Positions 2,081 through 63,581 of a stretch of 64,000 nucleotides of DNA are shown in pieces. Numbering within the stretch: position 1 is the stretch's first letter; each line of letters begins with the position of its first letter. Source of the stretch: Candidatus Doudnabacteria bacterium. Lineage in GTDB: Bacteria > Patescibacteriota > Doudnabacteria > UBA920. The stretch spans positions 431-64,430 of the forward strand of contig JBBREH010000001.1 in the NCBI GenBank assembly GCA_038203095.1, in the 5' to 3' direction. A program made the translations under genes and the position numbers. Below the pieces are notes generated by a model. That model was not told where the DNA came from and ran no database searches. It saw nothing but the letters and a program-made list of their open reading frames with translations.

Positions 2081-3007
2081 ATGCCTGAACTGCCAGAAGT
2101 TCAAACTATAGTTAGCGAGCTTAATAGGAAATTAAAAAACCGAACTATAAAGTCGGTTGATGTTTTCGCGCCCAAAATGGTTGGGGTGGGTTCGGCGACG
2201 CTCTCTCCTAAAAGAACAGCCTCCGCCCAAACAGTAGAAAAATTTAAAATGCTGATAACTGGCAAAAGGTTTTTATCAGTACGCCGTCGCGCCAAGCTTT
2301 TAATTTTTAAGTTGTCGGGAGAGCTTTTTATGCTTGTTCATCTTAAAATGACCGGACAATTTATTTTTGAAGATAAAGTTTTGCGGGGCAAAACTTTAGG
2401 GAAATATCGGCTTTTGAATAAACTTAATGCGCCGTTAGTTCAGCTACCTTGCAAGCATACGCATGTGATTTTTAATTTTGTCGATCAGACAAAATTATAT
2501 TTTAACGATGTCCGCAAGTTCGGTTATTTAAAGTTGGTGCGCGTTGATGAAATATCCTCTGTTCGTGAACTAAACGAATACGGTCCTGAGCCGTTGGGTA
2601 AATATTTTACCGCCGGACACTTTTTGACGGCCGTCAAAAAGTGTCCGGACAGAAAAATCAAACAAATAATTATGGATAATAAAATTGTGGTGGGGATAGG
2701 CAATATTTACAGCGACGAAATTTTATTTCATGCCGGGGTCCGGCCGACGCGCTTGGTTAAATTACTGTCCGATGTTGAAATTAGCAGTATTTATAAATGG
2801 ATAAAGCCGGTATTAATAAAAGGCATAAAAGCCAAAGGTTCCAGCGTTGGCGACTTTGTCCGTACCGACGGCACCTGGGGCCAAATGGGCAAATTTCACT
2901 TTGTCTACGGACGTAGGGGGCAGAAATGCAAAAAATGTGGTACGACCATCGAATCAGTTAAGCTGGGCGGTCACACAGCTAGTTATTGCCCAAGATGTCA
3001 AGTGTAG
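2081..3007 (+). CDS. fpg: Formamidopyrimidine-DNA glycosylase (Fpg/Nei family)
   Basis: Starts MPELPEV (catalytic Pro2 after Met removal), so the true start is the ATG at 2081 rather than the ORF-track start. C-terminal zinc finger CPRCQ. Confidence 0.8.
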   Translation: MPELPEVQTIVSELNRKLKNRTIKSVDVFAPKMVGVGSATLSPKRTASAQTVEKFKMLITGKRFLSVRRRAKLLIFKLSGELFMLVHLKMTGQFIFEDKVLRGKTLGKYRLLNKLNAPLVQLPCKHTHVIFNFVDQTKLYFNDVRKFGYLKLVRVDEISSVRELNEYGPEPLGKYFTAGHFLTAVKKCPDRKIKQIIMDNKIVVGIGNIYSDEILFHAGVRPTRLVKLLSDVEISSIYKWIKPVLIKGIKAKGSSVGDFVRTDGTWGQMGKFHFVYGRRGQKCKKCGTTIESVKLGGHTASYCPRCQV

Positions 3008-3008
3008 A

Positions 3009-3061
3009 GTGCCCATTTATAGGCTATCTGAGACGCCGATGAATCGGCACGCTACACATAT
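3009..3061. repeat. 53-nt repeat element, copy 1 (intergenic, directly after the fpg stop)
   Basis: About 83 percent identical to 22366..22418. Contains a GCCGAT..ATCGGC hairpin and the shared core ATCGGCACGCTACAC. Confidence 0.7.
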
Positions 3062-3090
3062 GCTACAATAAACAAAGAAAGGATAGTCCA

Positions 3091-3710: not shown

Positions 3711-4055
3711 ATGCAAGATGACCGTTGGCAACAATTAGTTGAGACCGCGCAAAAACATTTTAAGAATGTGTCTTTGGGTTTGGAAGATTTAATTATGGAA
3801 ACAAAGGACGGACCGGTAAAAACCGGCACGCAGGATGTGTTAATTTTTGAAAATCCAGCAGGCCGTTTTAAACTGGTAAGAGAAAATAAACCGGTGGTGC
3901 TGGAAAAGAAAGAGCTGTATTCTCACCGCGCGGGACAAAGCGCCCAAACAAATTATAAATTTTCCGAAACCGAATTTTCCCACAAGTTAAGGGTTTACAA
4001 GGAAGTGGATTTTGAAGAGTGGGATGAAATAACCCTGGACAAGCTAGGAATTTGA
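3711..4055 (+). CDS. Hypothetical protein
   Basis: 114-aa ORF; no recognisable family. Confidence 0.35.
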   Translation: MQDDRWQQLVETAQKHFKNVSLGLEDLIMETKDGPVKTGTQDVLIFENPAGRFKLVRENKPVVLEKKELYSHRAGQSAQTNYKFSETEFSHKLRVYKEVDFEEWDEITLDKLGI

Positions 4056-6446: not shown

Positions 6447-8099
6447 ATGAGTAAACTTATTAAATATGGCTATGAAGCCAAGCAGGCTATTAAGGCCGGT
6501 GTAGACAAAGCGGCAAATGTAATTAAAGTCACCTTAGGTCCCACAGGTAAAACTGTAATTTTGGGCACAGGTTTTGGCACGCCCACGGTAACTGACGACG
6601 GCGTAACCGTTGCCAAAGACATTGAGCTAGAAGACAAGTTTGAAAATATTGGCGCTTCTTTAATTCAGGAAGTGGCCAACAAGACCAACGAGCAGGCAGG
6701 AGACGGAACTACTACCGCTACAGTACTCGCGCAAAAAATGATAGAAGAAGCTTTTGGCGCTGTGGCGATTAATTCTTCCCGCGCCAACGACATAAAAAAA
6801 GGCATGGACAAAGCCGTGGCTTTTGTGGTGGAAGAGCTGAAAAAAATGAAAAAAGACGTAAAGGGCAAAGAAGGCATTGAGCAGGTTGCCACCATAGCAT
6901 CCCTTGACCCGGAAGTCGGCAAACTTATTGCCGAAGCCATGGAAGAAGTTGGCCATGACGGCGTAATTACCGTGGAAGAAGGCCAAACAATTGGCATTGA
7001 AAAAGAAGTCGTTAAAGGTATGCGCTTTGATAAAGGCTTTGTTAATCCTTACATGGTCACCAACGCCGAACGTATGGAAGCGGTCTGGGACGATGCCTAT
7101 ATTTTAATCACTGACAAAAAAATCGCCAGCGTTCAGGATATTTTGCCGATTTTGGAAAAAGTCGCGCAAAGTGGCAAGAAAGATTTAGTAATTATTGCCG
7201 ACGAGATTGAAGGCGAAGCTTTAGCCACCTTTGTGGTAAATAAACTTCGCGGCACCTTTAATGTGCTTGCGGTTAAGGCTCCGGGTTTTGGTGACCGCAG
7301 AAAAGAAATGCTTCAGGATATTGCAGTTTTAACCGGCGGAACTGTGATTACTGAAGATATGGGTTTGAAATTGGATAAAACTGAAATTAAGGATTTAGGC
7401 AAGGCTAGAAAAGTTATAGCCACCAAAGAGCACACCACAATTGTGGACGGTGCCGGCAATAAAGCAAAGATTGATGCCCGGGTCAGCCAAATTAAAGCTG
7501 AGCACAAAAACTCCACTTCCGATTACGACAAAGATAAATTACAAGAAAGAATGGCTCGTTTGGCCGGCGGGGTGGGTGTTATTAAAGTAGGCGCCTTTAC
7601 CGAAACCGAAATGAAGGCCAAAAAGTTTAAAATTGAGGACGCACTTAATGCCACTCGCGCGGCCGTGGAAGAGGGGATTATTCCGGGCGGTGGCGTTGCT
7701 TTGGCAAAGCTCGCTCCTAAGCTTGACAGCTTTGGCAGTGAGTTAAACGATGGGCAAAGAGCCGGCGTAAAAGTTATTCGCAATTCTTTGGAAGCCCCGC
7801 TTAGGCAGATTGCAATAAACTCCGGTATTGAAGTTACGCCGATTCTGGCAAAAATTCAAAGCTCAACAGATGCCAACTTTGGTTACAATTTTGCCACTAT
7901 GATGGAAACAGACATGCTCAAAGACGGCATTGTTGACCCGGTTAAGGTTACCCGGTTGGCGCTTGAGCATGCTGTGTCTATTGCCTCTACATTAGTAACA
8001 TCTGAAGCTATTGTTGTAGACAAGCCCGAACCCAAAGAATCCGCCCCTTCCGGCGGCGGTATGGGTGGAGGCATGGGCGGTATGGGGGGAATGTACTAG
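6447..8099 (+). CDS. groEL: Chaperonin GroEL
   Basis: Full-length GroEL similarity with C-terminal GGM repeats. ATG at 6447; the track start at 6438 is a TTG. Confidence 0.95.
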   Translation: MSKLIKYGYEAKQAIKAGVDKAANVIKVTLGPTGKTVILGTGFGTPTVTDDGVTVAKDIELEDKFENIGASLIQEVANKTNEQAGDGTTTATVLAQKMIEEAFGAVAINSSRANDIKKGMDKAVAFVVEELKKMKKDVKGKEGIEQVATIASLDPEVGKLIAEAMEEVGHDGVITVEEGQTIGIEKEVVKGMRFDKGFVNPYMVTNAERMEAVWDDAYILITDKKIASVQDILPILEKVAQSGKKDLVIIADEIEGEALATFVVNKLRGTFNVLAVKAPGFGDRRKEMLQDIAVLTGGTVITEDMGLKLDKTEIKDLGKARKVIATKEHTTIVDGAGNKAKIDARVSQIKAEHKNSTSDYDKDKLQERMARLAGGVGVIKVGAFTETEMKAKKFKIEDALNATRAAVEEGIIPGGGVALAKLAPKLDSFGSELNDGQRAGVKVIRNSLEAPLRQIAINSGIEVTPILAKIQSSTDANFGYNFATMMETDMLKDGIVDPVKVTRLALEHAVSIASTLVTSEAIVVDKPEPKESAPSGGGMGGGMGGMGGMY

Positions 8100-8136
8100 T
8101 CAACAGACACACAGGTGGGAACAGATTGCACAGATA

Positions 8137-8169
8137 AAAATCCTGGCTCCGAAAGGAGCCAGGATTTTG
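8137..8169 (+). terminator. Rho-independent terminator after groEL
   Basis: AAATCCTGGCTCC-GAAA-GGAGCCAGGATTTT followed by a T-run. Confidence 0.7.
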
Positions 8170-8563: not shown

Positions 8564-9342
8564 ACTTGGTCACGTAAAAAAACGTGTGTTTTGCATCTTA
8601 AAAATTCAATATTTAAGCAGTGTGTTTTTGCAGGAGAACATACGACTTTTATACATACCCTTACACCAATCTTCGCCAGAGCGATAAGCAATTACAGTAA
8701 AGTTGACCACATTATAAAGCGACTGATTATTTTAACGAGCATAAGTTTTGTTGGAGATTGGCGTGAGGGTATTATTCACAGATACGTAGAAGGGAACAGA
8801 TTGCACAGATAAATTATCTGCGTCATCTGTATTAATCTGCGCATCCGCGATCTCATGCTCCTAATTTCGTTAACCCGGATTGGGGGCGCTAGAGCCTGTT
8901 TAATAAATTGCTTTCGAAGCGAAATTTCAGAATTTTGAGCGAAAAACTTAAAGAAAAGCGAGGCGACACCAGGGCGTGTCGGTGAGCTTTGATGAAAGTT
9001 TTGCAGCCAAAATTCTGAAATTGCAGCCGAAATGAATTTATTGAACGGGCTCATACTAAAGCCGTATACTAAAGTACTAGAATAATATTACTATGATTCT
9101 CCTGTACTCAAGTCTACGGTTTTTAATTTTTACAAAAGTTTTGAGCTTGTATAGTTTTGCTTGTTTGCTACAAAATTAATTCTAAACATTTTCGTAGTCA
9201 TTTGTAGTGTGCTGATTTTGTAGATTTGTAGTTTGTTTCTGCAAACGTGGGCCATAAGGAGGGCAATTTATATTTTCCGTCCGAGACGGATAGGCCTTAT
9301 TACTTAGACCCACACTTGTGAAAATAAACATAGTTATTGATT

Positions 9343-22084: not shown

Positions 22085-22200
22085 TTGACAAGATTGAGCA
22101 AGATTTTCATGCCAGAGGCAGATCCACCTTCGGCGGAAAATGATTGACAACATTGGAATGCAATTGTCTTTATAATCTTTTAAATCATGTTAATCAACTT

Positions 22201-22932
22201 ATGAAGCTGTCAATAATCATCCCAGCGCACAATGAAGAAAAAACCATTGCTCAGGTTTTGGAGCAGGTTTTAAAAGTGGATTTGGACGGGTGGGAGAAAG
22301 AGGTGGTTGTGGTGGATGACGGAAGTAGTGACGGGACAGGTACTATCCTGGAAAAGATTTGTAGCGTGCCCATTTATGGGCATTCCGGATCGCCGATAAA
22401 TCGGCACGCTACACTTATTAGCCACCCCACCAATCTCGGCAAAGGCGCGGCAATAAAATCGGCTTTGGTCAAAGCCACCGGGGATTACGTAATTATTCAG
22501 GACGCGGATTTGGAGTATAATCCGGGCGATATCGTTAATCTTTTATCGTTTATCCCTGACGATGGAAAACATCGGATTGCCATTTTTGGCAAGCGCGGTT
22601 ATAAAGCTTATCCGGAGCGCGGCTTCCACTATGTTATTGGCGCGTGGTTGCTTACTACTTTTTATAACTTGCTTTATGGCCAGCAACTTACGGATCTTTA
22701 CACTGGCTACAAATTAATCCCGACACGCATTTTTAAAGAACTAAACATTGAGTCCAACGGTTTTGAATTTGAAGCCGAAGTGGCTTGTAAGCTGGTGAAA
22801 AAAAATGTTATTATAAAGGAAGTAGAAATTAGTTATTTACCCAGAAACAAAGCTCAAGGTAAACATATTCGCTTTGTTGACGCCGTGAAAGGTTTTTGGA
22901 CTATTGTTAAAATTAGGCTATTTAAGAATTGA
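22201..22932 (+). CDS. GT2 glycosyltransferase (polyprenyl-phosphate sugar synthase/Dpm1-like)
   Basis: LSIIIPAHNEE...VVVVDDGSSDGT...DADLEYNP motifs. ATG at 22201. Carries a 53-nt repeat insertion at 22366..22418. Confidence 0.75.
   Translation: MKLSIIIPAHNEEKTIAQVLEQVLKVDLDGWEKEVVVVDDGSSDGTGTILEKICSVPIYGHSGSPINRHATLISHPTNLGKGAAIKSALVKATGDYVIIQDADLEYNPGDIVNLLSFIPDDGKHRIAIFGKRGYKAYPERGFHYVIGAWLLTTFYNLLYGQQLTDLYTGYKLIPTRIFKELNIESNGFEFEAEVACKLVKKNVIIKEVEISYLPRNKAQGKHIRFVDAVKGFWTIVKIRLFKN
22366..22418. repeat. 53-nt repeat element, copy 2 (in-frame inside the GT2 CDS)
   Basis: Matches 3009..3061; encodes VPIYGHSGSPINRHATL inserted before the GKG motif of the GT2. Confidence 0.7.
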
Positions 22933-23905: not shown

Positions 23906-24898
23906 ATGGATAGAAATTTAGCTTTGGAATTTGTGCGGGTAACTGAGGCGGCGGCTATTGCAGCTAGTAAGTGGATAGGCAAGGGTGACGGTAAAAAGGC
24001 TGATGGCGCGGCAGTAGATGAAATGCGGTCGCGTTTTAATCAGATAGATTTTAAAGGCGTGGTGGTAATTGGTGAGGGGCAGAAAGACGAGGCGCCGGAA
24101 CTTTACACCGGGGAGAAGGTGGGACTTGGATGGAAAAACTCCAACCACCCCGGCCTTTCAGGCCACCCCTCCTTGAAAAGGAGGGGAGACTCCGTGTTTG
24201 ACCTTGCTGTTGACCCGCTTGAATGTACCGACAGCGTGGCTTATGGGCGTTATAATGCGATTGCGGTTATTGCGGCCGGAGCGCGGGGCTCGCTTTTAAG
24301 TGCGCCCGATACTTATATGGAAAAGTTGGCGGCCGGGCCAAAGGCTGCTAAAGTAATTAAAATGGGTGCGCCGGTTAAGCTAAACATTGAACGTACGGCC
24401 AAGGCTCTTGGTAAAAAAGTTGGGGATGTTACGGTGTGCATAATGGATAGAGAGCGCCATAAAGATTTAATTGGTCAGGTAAGAAAAATAGGCGCCAGAG
24501 TGCGGCTAATTACAGACGGCGACGTAGCGGGCGGGATAGCAACGTGTATGCCAGAATCGGGGATAGACCTGCTTATGGGCATTGGCGCTTCCGCAGAGGC
24601 AGTTTTGGCCGCCACAGCCATTAAAATTCTGGGTGGGCAAATATTCGCTCGCTTTAACCCAATGAAAGAAGCTCATCATCAATTGTTAAAAAAAGCCGGC
24701 CTTAACGACAAAAAAATTTACTCTGTAAACGACCTGGCCAAAGGTCAAACCCTAACCTTTACCGCCACAGGCATTATTGACGGCCCACTGCTTCAAGGGG
24801 TGAGGGTTGAGGGTAGCTACATTATAACCCATTCGATAGTAATCCGCGGTCAGAGCGGAACAATAAGATATATAACAACGCATCATAAGGAGAAATAG
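23906..24898 (+). CDS. glpX: Fructose-1,6-bisphosphatase class II (GlpX)
   Basis: Collinear with GlpX (LALEFVRVTEAAAIAA...GEGQKDEAPELYTGEKVG...DLAVDP). Carries an extra ~17 aa encoded by a palindromic element at 24149..24190. Confidence 0.85.
   Translation: MDRNLALEFVRVTEAAAIAASKWIGKGDGKKADGAAVDEMRSRFNQIDFKGVVVIGEGQKDEAPELYTGEKVGLGWKNSNHPGLSGHPSLKRRGDSVFDLAVDPLECTDSVAYGRYNAIAVIAAGARGSLLSAPDTYMEKLAAGPKAAKVIKMGAPVKLNIERTAKALGKKVGDVTVCIMDRERHKDLIGQVRKIGARVRLITDGDVAGGIATCMPESGIDLLMGIGASAEAVLAATAIKILGGQIFARFNPMKEAHHQLLKKAGLNDKKIYSVNDLAKGQTLTFTATGIIDGPLLQGVRVEGSYIITHSIVIRGQSGTIRYITTHHKEK
24149..24190. repeat. G/C-rich double hairpin inserted in-frame in glpX
   Basis: GGCC-TTTCA-GGCC followed by CCCCTCCTT-GAAA-AGGAGGGG; encodes PGLSGHPSLKRRGD, which is absent from E. 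coli GlpX at that point. Confidence 0.6.
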
Positions 24899-27668: not shown

Positions 27669-28505
27669 ATGACAACAAAAATCTTTCTCGACTCAGGCGA
27701 CCCCGTTGAAACCAAACAAGCTTTAAAGTTGCTTGGGTTTTTGGACGGGCAAACTACTAATCCGTCGTTAATTGCTAAAAATCCGGCCACCAGCGGAAAA
27801 AAATTTACTGAAGATGAACTGCTAAAATTTTACCGTGGTATAGTTACAGAAGTCTCGTCGCTCATTCCAAAAGGCAGTGTTTCAATAGAAGTTTATGCGG
27901 ACAAAAATATGTTGGCAAATGAAATGCTGGCGCAGGGTAGGGAGTTTAATACTTGGATTCCGAACGCCCATATTAAATATCCGACTACGACCGAAGGTTT
28001 AAAGGCAGCTGAAATAAGCGTGAAAGAGGGAATGAGGGTAAATATGACGCTAGTTTTTAGTCAGGAGCAGGCTGCTGCAGTTTATGCCGCAACAAAAGGA
28101 GCATTGCGCGGACAAGTTTATTTGTCGCCATTCGTGGGTAGGCTGGATGACCGTGGGGAGAATGGCATGGATTTTGTTTCTAACGTCGTAAAAATGTATG
28201 AACAAGGCGACGGACATGTGGAAATTTTGTCAGCTTCAATTAGGTCAAGCGAACATATGAGAAAGGCGATTGAACAGGGTAGTGATATTATTACGGCACC
28301 GCTAAAAGTTTTAAAAGAGTGGGTAGAGGCGGGATCTTCCTCCTCCCCTCGCCAGGGGAGGATGCCCATAGGACAGGAGAGTTTGCTGCCAATTCTTTAT
28401 CAGGATATCAGCTTAAACAAGCCCTGGCAGGAATATAATTTACAGCATAATTTAACTAATGCCGGTTTGGAAAAATTTACAAGTGACTGGAATTCCTTAT
28501 TATAA
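27669..28505 (+). CDS. tal: Transaldolase (Fsa/TalC-type)
   Basis: IFLDSGDP...TTNPSL motifs. ATG at 27669. C-terminal region carries an extra segment that includes the palindromic element at 28342..28361. Confidence 0.8.
   Translation: MTTKIFLDSGDPVETKQALKLLGFLDGQTTNPSLIAKNPATSGKKFTEDELLKFYRGIVTEVSSLIPKGSVSIEVYADKNMLANEMLAQGREFNTWIPNAHIKYPTTTEGLKAAEISVKEGMRVNMTLVFSQEQAAAVYAATKGALRGQVYLSPFVGRLDDRGENGMDFVSNVVKMYEQGDGHVEILSASIRSSEHMRKAIEQGSDIITAPLKVLKEWVEAGSSSSPRQGRMPIGQESLLPILYQDISLNKPWQEYNLQHNLTNAGLEKFTSDWNSLL
28342..28361. repeat. G/C-rich hairpin inserted in-frame in the transaldolase gene
   Basis: CCTCCCC-TCGCCA-GGGGAGG within a C-terminal extra segment (SSSSPRQGRMPIG). Confidence 0.55.
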
Positions 28506-28513
28506 CATAAAAT

Positions 28514-29248
28514 CCACTTGGAAGAGGGGACACCTCTTCCAAGTGGGACTAATCTATTAATAAAGCTTGAATTTGTTTTTGTTTTTCTATTAGAGGACCG
28601 CTTTCTTCTACAAATTTTTTATAATCGTTAACCGTCTTAAATTTATCCATAATAACTCGCTTATCACAAAGGCCATCGTTTCTTTTTTCAATGTAATCCG
28701 AATAACTACTAAAGGCATATTCATCCGGAGTTTTTACAATCCCGGCCACAGTTGGGTTTTGATGAATATAGGCCGAAAGCCAAGTTAAATAAGATTCATT
28801 TTCTACCGGTATGGCTTTGAATGCTCCTTGAAATAAATGGCCCACATGGTCGTATTTTTTTTGAAAGTAGACTGCGTAGCCGGTGCATAGTTTTTGGATC
28901 AGTTTGCTAATTTTAATTTCGTTGTTTTGTCTTATTAATAAATGAAAATGGTTAGGCATAAGACAATAGCAGATTAAAGAAAATGCATCTGTAGGCAATT
29001 GCTTTCTTTTGTATTTTATATCAAGAGAGCTTGGGCTAACTTCCAATTCATTTTCTGGGAATAAATTTTCTCTTAATCGATGAATAAAAATTCCATAATC
29101 TTGGGGATCAAAAAAAATATCATTTTTACCATTACCTCGATTAAAGACATGATAATAATTTCCCGCAGTAAAAGTTTTGTAATCACGATAACGCATAATC
29201 ATATTATACCATAAAATTAACTTGGAAGAGGGGACACCTCTTCCAGTT
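28514..29248. mobile_element. IS200/IS605-like or RAYT-like unit: Y1 transposase flanked by near-identical palindromic hairpins
   Basis: CCACTTGGAAGAGG-GGACA-CCTCTTCCAAGTGG at 28514..28547 and AACTTGGAAGAGG-GGACA-CCTCTTCCAGTT at 29219..29248; 40 nt from tRNA-Pro. Confidence 0.6.
28549..29202 (-). CDS. HUH-Y1 transposase (IS200-like / REP-associated tyrosine transposase-like)
   Basis: YHVFNRGN..IFFDPQDY; HUH motif in LMPNHFHLLI; downstream Tyr (YIHQNP). Probable start at M68 of the track ORF, because the upstream part overlaps tRNA-Pro. Confidence 0.65.
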   Translation of the reverse strand: MIMRYRDYKTFTAGNYYHVFNRGNGKNDIFFDPQDYGIFIHRLRENLFPENELEVSPSSLDIKYKRKQLPTDAFSLICYCLMPNHFHLLIRQNNEIKISKLIQKLCTGYAVYFQKKYDHVGHLFQGAFKAIPVENESYLTWLSAYIHQNPTVAGIVKTPDEYAFSSYSDYIEKRNDGLCDKRVIMDKFKTVNDYKKFVEESGPLIEKQKQIQALLID

Positions 29249-29288: not shown

Positions 29289-29362
29289 CGGGCTGTAGTA
29301 TACCGGTAGTACGTCTGCTTTGGGAGCAGATAGACTGGGTTCGATTCCCAGCAGCCCGACCA
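29289..29362 (+). tRNA. tRNA-Pro (anticodon TGG), CCA encoded
   Basis: Acceptor CGGGCTG/CAGCCCG; anticodon stem TCTGC/GCAGA with loop TTTGGGA; T-arm CTGGG-TTCGATT-CCCAG. Confidence 0.8.
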
Positions 29363-39441: not shown

Positions 39442-39658
39442 TGGTAACAGTTCGCAACCTTGAGTAGATTGGAGTTTTGTTGATGTTCCCCGATGTAGCG
39501 CAGGCCATCGGCCTGCCAAATACTGGCAAATATGATAATACGTTCAGTCCTCTAAGCTCTTACACTTAACATTACTAATAAAATTTTGTCTTATTTGACA
39601 AGGTTTTTAAAATCGTTATTATATTTAAAAGGGTAAAATTAATTTTAAACGAAACAAA

Positions 39659-63477: not shown

Positions 63478-63581
63478 TCACAGATACACAGATAAAAGCA
63501 GATTACACAGATGCGATAATTTAACTACGACCGGATTTTATAAAAACCGTATTTATTGAGAAGTTTGTAATTTATTAAAAC

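Follow-up and report, generated by a model that had tools for sequence, protein, structure and literature searches.

Two short repeats in a Doudnabacteria genome as probable GTAG-tagged REP doublets of a Patescibacteria/CPR family, one of them inserted in frame in a glycosyltransferase gene

Two copies of a short inverted repeat were characterised in a 64-kb stretch of a Candidatus Doudnabacteria contig (hereafter, the window). We consider it very probable that these repeats are GTAG-tagged REP heterodimers, namely tail-to-tail doublets similar to REPIN/BIME, which are specific to Patescibacteria/CPR, spread by a RAYT and filtered by selection. They were assigned to this class because the halves of the element exactly bracket a RAYT gene in two Doudnabacteria MAGs.

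The repeat search of the window gave a 59-nt pair (3003-3061 and 22360-22418, family D9) with 83% identity. A pair of this identity had been noted in the preliminary description of the DNA and was confirmed; its coordinates, however, began 6 nt inside the element and ended 5 nt beyond it. The element is bounded by TGTAG...CTACA, where conservation drops sharply in an alignment of 30 family copies. The two copies were delimited from the sequence, the repeat pair, the fold and the family alignment as follows.

3003..3056, no strand: REP doublet copy A, 54 nt
3003-3024: left unit of copy A, TGTAGAGTGCCCATTTATAGGC
3025-3034: spacer of copy A
3035-3056: inverted right unit of copy A, GCCGATGAATCGGCACGCTACA
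22360..22413, no strand: REP doublet copy B, 54 nt
22360-22381: left unit of copy B, with GTAG at 22361-22364 and the hairpin GCCCATTTATGGGC at 22368-22381
22382-22391: spacer of copy B
22392-22413: inverted right unit of copy B, with the hairpin GCCGATAAATCGGC at 22392-22405

Over the 54-nt element proper, copies A and B were approximately 81% identical when counted from the aligned sequences, and across both conserved 22-nt arms they differed at 3 of 44 positions. Neither arm of copy B had a mismatch to the family consensus. A search of the window with the end motifs gave 4-5 matches, compared with 0.05-0.23 expected; this number was not reached in any of 100 shuffles. Both copies folded on either strand into one long hairpin (-26 to -33 kcal/mol, z from -5.2 to -7.6), the values being -27.1 kcal/mol (z = -5.4) for copy A and -31.9 kcal/mol (z = -7.6) for copy B.

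Each copy consists of two inverted 22-nt units, in which GTAG is followed by CGT and a hairpin with a 5-bp stem, and a 10-nt spacer lies between the units. The element reads TGTAGCGTGCC-CATTTATGGGC, then a spacer of variable length (10 nt in the window and 2-12 nt across the family) and GCCGATAAATC-GGCACGCTACA. In the aligned family copies, every unit opens with (T)GTAG and its stem begins 2-3 nt later; the stem has 5-6 bp and the loop is the 4-nt TTTA. GCCCAtttaTGGGC in one arm and GCCGAtaaaTCGGC in the other are each perfect self-complementary small hairpins. Hence, the GCCGAT..ATCGGC hairpin reported previously is present but is not the only one: GCCCAT..ATGGGC forms a second inner hairpin, and the complete element is an inverted doublet. 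Apart from two positions (C versus G), the left and right halves are reverse complements of each other, and the stems GCCCA/TGGGC and GCCGA/TCGGC differ by compensating C/G changes. Because these changes compensate within each arm, each unit folds alone, whereas the long hairpin keeps two fixed mismatches. C/G heterodimers made up 61 of the 69 non-redundant copies of the family, with 32 in one orientation and 29 in the other, and the doublets were 48-62 nt long.

The sharp ends TGTAGCGTGCC and GGCACGCTACA were common to 30 copies from 10 assemblies and the window. No target-site duplication, direct repeats or conserved flank or insertion motif was observed at these 30 aligned copies; their flanking bases were only weakly biased, towards G at -1 and towards C/T at +1/+2. 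An Rfam scan of the whole window brought only two tRNAs to the gathering score, and the element had no covariance-model match. An integron attC site, a CRISPR repeat and a conserved peptide module were dropped as candidates on the anatomy (GTAG tag, inverted doublet and no arrays).

Other short sequences in the window were also recorded. The 9 nt on the 3' side of the right end of copy A (CATATGCTA, 3057-3065) recur in the unit located after the stop codon of a RAYT gene in the locus L037 (2944-2952), and in L001 catatgct lies 7 nt further out than the position of CATATGCTA. The shared 9 nt may be an extended right end, a preferred target or a chance match. Single GTAG-tagged hairpins of other types were found on the plus strand (TGTAGCGCAGGCCATCGGCCTGCCA, 39494-39518) and, at the window edge, on the minus strand (TGTAGGGGCGGATCTCATCCGCCCG, 1-25); these may be REP singlets of other families. 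Furthermore, two short direct-repeat families rich in ACAGAT / ATCTG were present (D6 and D11; 8103-8138, 8778-8813 and 63480-63515; 343-373 and 8814-8844).

The proposal that the pair belongs to a repeat family was borne out by searching GTDB representative genomes and metagenomes with the pattern TGTAGCGTGCC-N25-40-GGCACGCTACA. The search yielded 26 loci in the representative genomes and 39 in metagenome contigs, with chance matches to the end pattern estimated at ~1; together with the metagenome matches, 69 non-redundant copies were collected on Patescibacteria/CPR contigs. Read from record titles only, the genome loci belong to three Doudnabacteria MAGs (seven loci in nzgw383 alone), three Saccharibacteria-titled MAGs, one further MAG, a Daviesbacteria contig with two copies and a Brocadiales-labelled contig. 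Identical 22-nt arms occurred in the MAGs titled Doudnabacteria, 'Saccharibacteria' and Daviesbacteria. The window itself was assigned to Patescibacteria by homologs of its GT2 and Fpg proteins, with Doudnabacteria as the nearest group. In the Brocadiales-labelled contig (L005, 1502-1558), the same 11-nt termini enclose an unrelated GC-rich palindromic interior; the contig may have been mis-binned, the copy may represent a separate REP family with a common tag region, or the match may be due to chance. A phage vector for the element was rejected, as the search of IMG/VR with the 21-nt unit gave no match and no viral contig.

The copy number was low (2 in 64 kb, and ~8 exact-end doublets in the best-sampled MAG). 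The copies were dispersed and mostly extragenic (62 of 69), and many lay directly 3' of stop codons or a few bases 5' of start codons. In 18 of the 69 copies, the TAG of the tag was the stop codon of an upstream ORF of at least 80 aa. The seven intragenic copies were located, by reading of the ORF translations, in the GT2 glycosyltransferase of the window, in ATP-grasp-like proteins (L010 and L011), in KsgA (L014), LeuRS (L015) and GatB (L019), and in an uncharacterised ORF (L073). The LeuRS gene holds a second, variant doublet on the minus strand (L015, 5025-5090; GTAGTCAGCCCATTTATGGGC...GCCGATAAATCGGCTAACTAC, peptide VVSPFMGSLGDKTADKSANY), the terminal-stem changes of which are compensated.

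A transposase gene linked to the doublet was found by a screen for the HUH and Y signature motifs. In the Doudnabacteria MAG nzgw383 (L020), the two half-elements exactly enclose a 137-aa ORF: the end of TGTAGCGTGCCCATTTATGGGCG is 15 nt upstream of the ATG, and the start of CGCCGATAAATCGGCACGCTACA is 7 nt downstream of the stop codon. A RAYT gene of another Doudnabacteria MAG (L037, MAG_CO250) is likewise bracketed by two half-elements, and both MAGs also hold dispersed doublets. The protein of L020 matched the NCBIfam model REP_Tyr_transpos (REP-associated tyrosine transposase, NF047646) with 8.5e-21 and 74.4 bits, which is slightly under the 80-bit cut-off, and the IS200 model NF033573 with 2e-3 and 18 bits. 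It also matched Pfam PF01797 Y1_Tnp ('Transposase IS200 like'). Its best solved relative was TnpA-REP of E. coli (PDB 4ER8, 1.8e-7), with which the HUH motifs (HIH/HMH) and the catalytic Tyr motifs (YIINNP/YIYINP) line up. Many 137-aa metagenomic homologs were obtained from Doudnabacteria/Patescibacteria, for which the JGI name is 'REP element-mobilizing transposase RayT'.

Both MAGs have the gene order purC-RAYT-purB, with identities of 78% for RAYT, 82% for purC and 71% for purB. This placement, compared between the two genomes L020 and L037, points to a fixed chromosomal site, as expected of a RAYT, and not to a jumping IS. A 66%-identical RAYT in L023 has variant whole doublets on both sides, with stems that are different in sequence and yet remain self-complementary. 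When the doublet-associated RAYT (P0121) was used for tblastn within the 64-kb window, no RAYT of that clade was found; the only match was a Y1 gene with 29% identity, listed below. Neither purC nor purB was found in the window.

28552-29205, minus strand: Y1_Tnp/RAYT-like gene, 217 aa (Pfam 1.9e-11; NCBIfam RAYT 4e-12, below the cut-off)

This gene is flanked by two direct 44-nt repeats (28498-28541 and 29202-29245), each with the hairpin TGGAAGAGGggacaCCTCTTCCA, which is unrelated to the doublet, and a tRNA (29289-29359) adjoins it. No further copies of the 44-nt repeats were found in the window or in the collected loci.

Copy A is located at the 3' end of fpg.

2081..3007, plus strand: fpg, formamidopyrimidine-DNA glycosylase, 308 aa from MPELPEV (Pfam; P0241 100% identical over 308 aa)
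3005..3007, plus strand: TAG stop codon of fpg, from the tag of copy A (sequence, ORF and context census)

This copy had been described as sitting after the fpg stop. It does abut the gene, but it overlaps the last codon and itself provides the TAG. The 308-aa length is standard for Fpg. Most Fpg orthologs end in CQK, whereas 11 of 120 end in CQV, as in the window; the ortholog protein ends therefore suggest that insertion of copy A rewrote the last codon and the stop of fpg. None of the 77 loci held fpg beside the element. Copy A is typical of the family, since the TAG of the tag ends an upstream ORF in 18 of the 69 copies as given above. No T-run followed copy A on its 3' side. An ORF at 2847-3071, which had already been regarded as spurious, is present and is indeed spurious, as it overlaps the Pfam-supported fpg in another frame.

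Copy B lies within a glycosyltransferase gene.

22201..22932, plus strand: GT2 glycosyltransferase, 243 aa from the ATG common to orthologs (ORF, homologs, Pfam, alignment and model)

The database record of this protein starts at a TTG at 22144 and has 262 aa. In the 243-aa protein, residues 54-71 (CSVPIYGHSGSPINRHAT) are encoded by copy B; they are just before the GKG motif as previously stated and fall in the alpha2-beta3 loop between a helix (46-55) and a strand (70-74). Among the 108 parsed GT2 homologs, 82 had none of the three hairpin signatures screened for. The spacing from DDGS to GKG had a median of 33 residues in these 82 homologs versus 44.5 in six doublet carriers; that is, the loop was approximately 11 residues shorter where no hairpin signature was present. 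In the AlphaFold model of the GT2 (mean pLDDT 89.7), the blocks 51-60 and 61-70, which cover the insert, averaged 72 and 57. Taken together, the homologs lacking the insert, their shorter loop and the low-confidence loop position show that copy B was truly inserted, in frame, into a surface loop of the GT2, as the preliminary description had proposed.

That description had also considered that GT2 orthologs might share the segment as native sequence. The DNA of some orthologs does contain the segment, but as the same mobile DNA and not natively, in the opposite orientation, in degenerate form or with a nested insert. At the same junction, L027 carries the doublet in the opposite orientation, L028 a degenerate copy and L033 a copy whose ends are similar but whose interior differs. 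In L029 (~1645-1790, ortholog P0016), the apical spacer of a GTAG doublet contains a nested hairpin of ~90 nt, which enlarges the loop to 71 residues between DDGS and GKG. Among the orthologs, L030 and L031 have unrelated perfect hairpins at the loop, and no hairpin was found at the loop in the DNA of L032 and L034. The unrelated hairpins comprise one with a core around ACGGCCGT and another, CAATGGGCATCATTG/CAATGATGCCCATTG. The doublet carriers were not monophyletic among the GT2 homologs in a rough NJ tree, which, crude as it is, suggests recurrent insertion or loss at this loop.

Perfect palindromes of a second class were also observed, with 15-19-bp stems centred on ACGGCCGT (often TTGACGGCCGTCAA) and with outer arms that vary between copies and remain self-complementary. 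They were located in the window at 2613-2648 (inside fpg), in L006 at 7814-7851, in L042 at 104-139, in L063 at 870-909, in L015 at ~3796-3827 and in L031 at ~1205-1250. The palindrome in fpg has a perfect 16-bp stem, is readable on both strands and lies in Fpg sequence of native length (GHFLTAVKKCP); judging from ortholog peptides (HFLTAVKKC versus HFVTAVTKW), Fpg residues appear to covary so as to preserve it. In 13 GT2 homologs, the ACGGCCGT core is read as 'DGRQ' at the loop. The GT2 orthologs have a second variable site (alignment columns ~200-255), where peptides such as PSPLPGGEG, PPLTLRGG and PSPQQGRE resemble translations of GC-rich hairpins. Small perfect hairpins such as CCCCTCCTTgaaAAGGAGGGG were present in the window at 24166-24186, inside a glpX-type FBPase gene, and at 28341-28362; CCCCTCCTTgaaAAGGAGGGG falls within the glpX ORF, where the peptide HPSLKRRG lies approximately nearby.

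We regard as rather doubtful, and offer only as a speculation, the combined idea that the alpha2-beta3 loop of the GT2 is a hairpin hot spot and that, separately, the REPIN-RAYT system spreads horizontally across class-level CPR lineages. Such a hot spot could arise by structure-directed insertion into existing hairpins or by generation of palindromes in situ; if true, either process would be a mutational mechanism that continually rewrites protein loops in CPR bacteria. As to the spread, the identical arms across records titled Doudnabacteria, 'Saccharibacteria' and Daviesbacteria fit poorly with a strictly vertical, lineage-specific picture of REPINs, and horizontal spread, if true, would run contrary to the accepted vertical model.

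The element had further been claimed to carry a conserved peptide-compatible frame. This claim was not supported in that form, as only 7 of the 69 copies are intragenic and these use two frames, or switch frame inside copies of 55 or 62 nt. Two of the three frames are open on each strand of the element. The peptides are CSVPIY..PINRHAT on the plus strand and CSVPIY..PINGHAT on the minus strand, since palindromic DNA makes both strands encode nearly one peptide. The GatB copy uses the other frame (VACPFMG..ADKSARY), and the 55-nt LeuRS copy changes frame within the element. By our own estimate, an 18-codon frame is open by chance with a probability of ~0.4. DNA identity, palindromy and a frame that can be open by chance thus account for the shared peptide: the compatible frame is a by-product of DNA conservation, and selection merely removes disruptive insertions. 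For annotation, this means that stretches such as CSVPI..PINGHAT or VACPFMG..ADKSARY in CPR proteins are derived from the element and are not motifs.

In the mechanism proposed here, the RAYT, a Y1 HUH tyrosine transposase, would recognise the GTAG tag and the hairpin on single-stranded DNA, and would then cut and rejoin nearby, so that doublets might disseminate without target-site duplication. Selection would retain only harmless insertions. Those retained would be copies past or overlapping the 3' end of a gene, where the TAG of the tag can become the stop codon (copy A in fpg), copies just upstream of start codons and, more rarely, frame-preserving copies in surface loops that tolerate an insert (copy B in the GT2). 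We infer that the RAYT catalyses this process, that the doublets are still mobile today and that the genome from which the window derives encodes a cognate RAYT.

The bracketing of the RAYT gene could also be explained if the repeats were MITEs of the PATE type, derived from a still-autonomous IS200/IS605-like IS; a unit of ~480 bp would jump, and the 54-nt elements would be its internal-deletion derivatives. In accordance with this, the transposase of L020 and L037 lies exactly between a left and a right half-element, the doublet resembles a version of this unit without the gene, and the L020 protein carries Pfam Y1_Tnp, 'Transposase IS200 like'. However, RAYTs with no more than 78% identity occupy the same purC-purB site in the two MAGs, and the NCBIfam RAYT model gave 74 bits versus 18 for that of IS200. 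The ends of IS200/IS605 are hairpins in direct orientation on one strand, whereas those of the doublet are inverted and bear the RAYT-specific GTAG tag. Such a MITE is accordingly considered improbable. Some findings do count against the interpretation as RAYT-spread REP doublets, namely the finding of only a distant Y1 gene, and no RAYT of this clade, in the 64-kb window, the RAYT score slightly under the cut-off, the low copy number, the doublet of about half the common REPIN length and the identical arms in records of several lineages.

Two further explanations were weighed. In the first, the host would keep the element for regulation, primarily as a functional RNA or DNA structure (such as a terminator, a stabiliser of mRNA 3' ends or a site for protein binding), and its spread would be secondary. 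This would suit the very stable hairpins and the many copies right after stops or a few bases before starts, and co-option of this kind is known for REPs (PMC3733652). It would not suit the missing Rfam match and T-run after copy A, nor the orientations of ~1:1 and the copies inside housekeeping coding regions, which argue against a strand- or position-specific role as the reason for the existence of the family. Hence, this explanation is very improbable for the family, and the host may have co-opted individual copies. It is hardly credible that the repeats are native coding sequence, that is, a conserved peptide module common to the GT2 and the small ORF after fpg, even though the frame is open and five GT2 homologs besides that of the window have a similar peptide at the same loop. 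The same DNA is intergenic elsewhere and is found on both strands and in two frames; 82 of the 108 GT2 homologs lack the three hairpin signatures, and the carriers are scattered on the rough NJ tree, with the element of L027 in the opposite orientation. In addition, the insert corresponds to a low-confidence loop of the AlphaFold model, and ORF 2847-3071 runs out of frame over the Pfam-supported fpg. The peptide module was rejected as contradicted by the intergenic copies, the use of both strands and two frames, and the insert-free homologs.

The GTAG-tagged REP doublet therefore remains the preferred interpretation, and it places a known type of selfish DNA in a little-studied lineage. REPIN-RAYT systems have been studied mostly in Proteobacteria and described as almost exclusively extragenic, and the version found here is a compact one in ultra-small, gene-dense CPR genomes. 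Approximately one in ten copies lies inside a gene (by reading, those for tRNA synthetase, GatB and rRNA methyltransferase among others), and one in four donates a stop codon. In this family, the conversion of selfish DNA into protein sequence is tractable, and for REPIN theory the CPR doublets test whether such systems are truly lineage-bound. Our literature search found no paper joining RAYT/REPIN biology with Patescibacteria/CPR.

Among known systems, the REPIN/BIME of Pseudomonas, E. coli, Stenotrophomonas and Marinomonas (PMC3116915, PMC3337134, PMC3333891, PMC8266576, PMC3733652) are the most similar. REPINs consist of REP units in inverted doublets, and they flank RAYT genes (PMC3337134; bioRxiv 2021.07.10.451892). 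GTAG is essential for TnpA-REP, and a group 3 system has 5-bp perfect REPs placed 2 nt from GTAG (PMC8266576). Tail-to-tail REP heterodimers with different stems are known, GTAG termini of REPs often donate TAG stops, and REP dimers inside ORFs encode 20-30 aa in frame in other phyla, tRNA synthetase genes included (PMC3733652). The CPR family shares with REPIN/BIME the GTAG 5' of a short hairpin, the inverted units with a short spacer and heterodimer stems, and the RAYT bracketed by units at a fixed chromosomal site (in two related MAGs). It also shares the mostly extragenic location near gene 3' ends, the use of TAG as a stop and the occasional in-frame intragenic dimers. It differs in the doublet length (48-62 nt versus ~100), the low copy number and the Patescibacteria/CPR host, as well as in the ~10% of copies that are intragenic, including those in tRNA synthetase genes, and in the arms that are identical across several class-level lineages by record titles.

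Rickettsia palindromic elements (RPE) resemble the CPR family as in-frame palindromic inserts in surface loops of housekeeping proteins that are readable on both strands; their sequence is unrelated, however, and the CPR family is GTAG-tagged and accompanied by a RAYT. RPE-1 is longer than the CPR doublet. RPE-4 and RPE-6 are CGTC-tagged REPs (PMC3733652). With IS200/IS605 and PATE, the family has in common a Y1 HUH transposase, hairpin ends, the lack of target-site duplication and a presumed single-strand DNA chemistry; it is unlike IS200/IS605 in that its ends are inverted with GTAG, its protein scores as a RAYT and the gene is syntenic between genomes. Similarly to classical MITEs such as Correia elements, the doublets are small, non-autonomous and dispersed and have terminal inverted repeats, whereas the 30 copies have no target-site duplication and the associated transposase is Y1, not DDE. 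Intragenic GTAG REPs and TAG donation have thus already been described in other phyla. What is new is the host lineage, the compact size, the intragenic fraction and the repeated occupation of the GT2 loop by several hairpin families, together with an apparent identity of arms across distant CPR groups.
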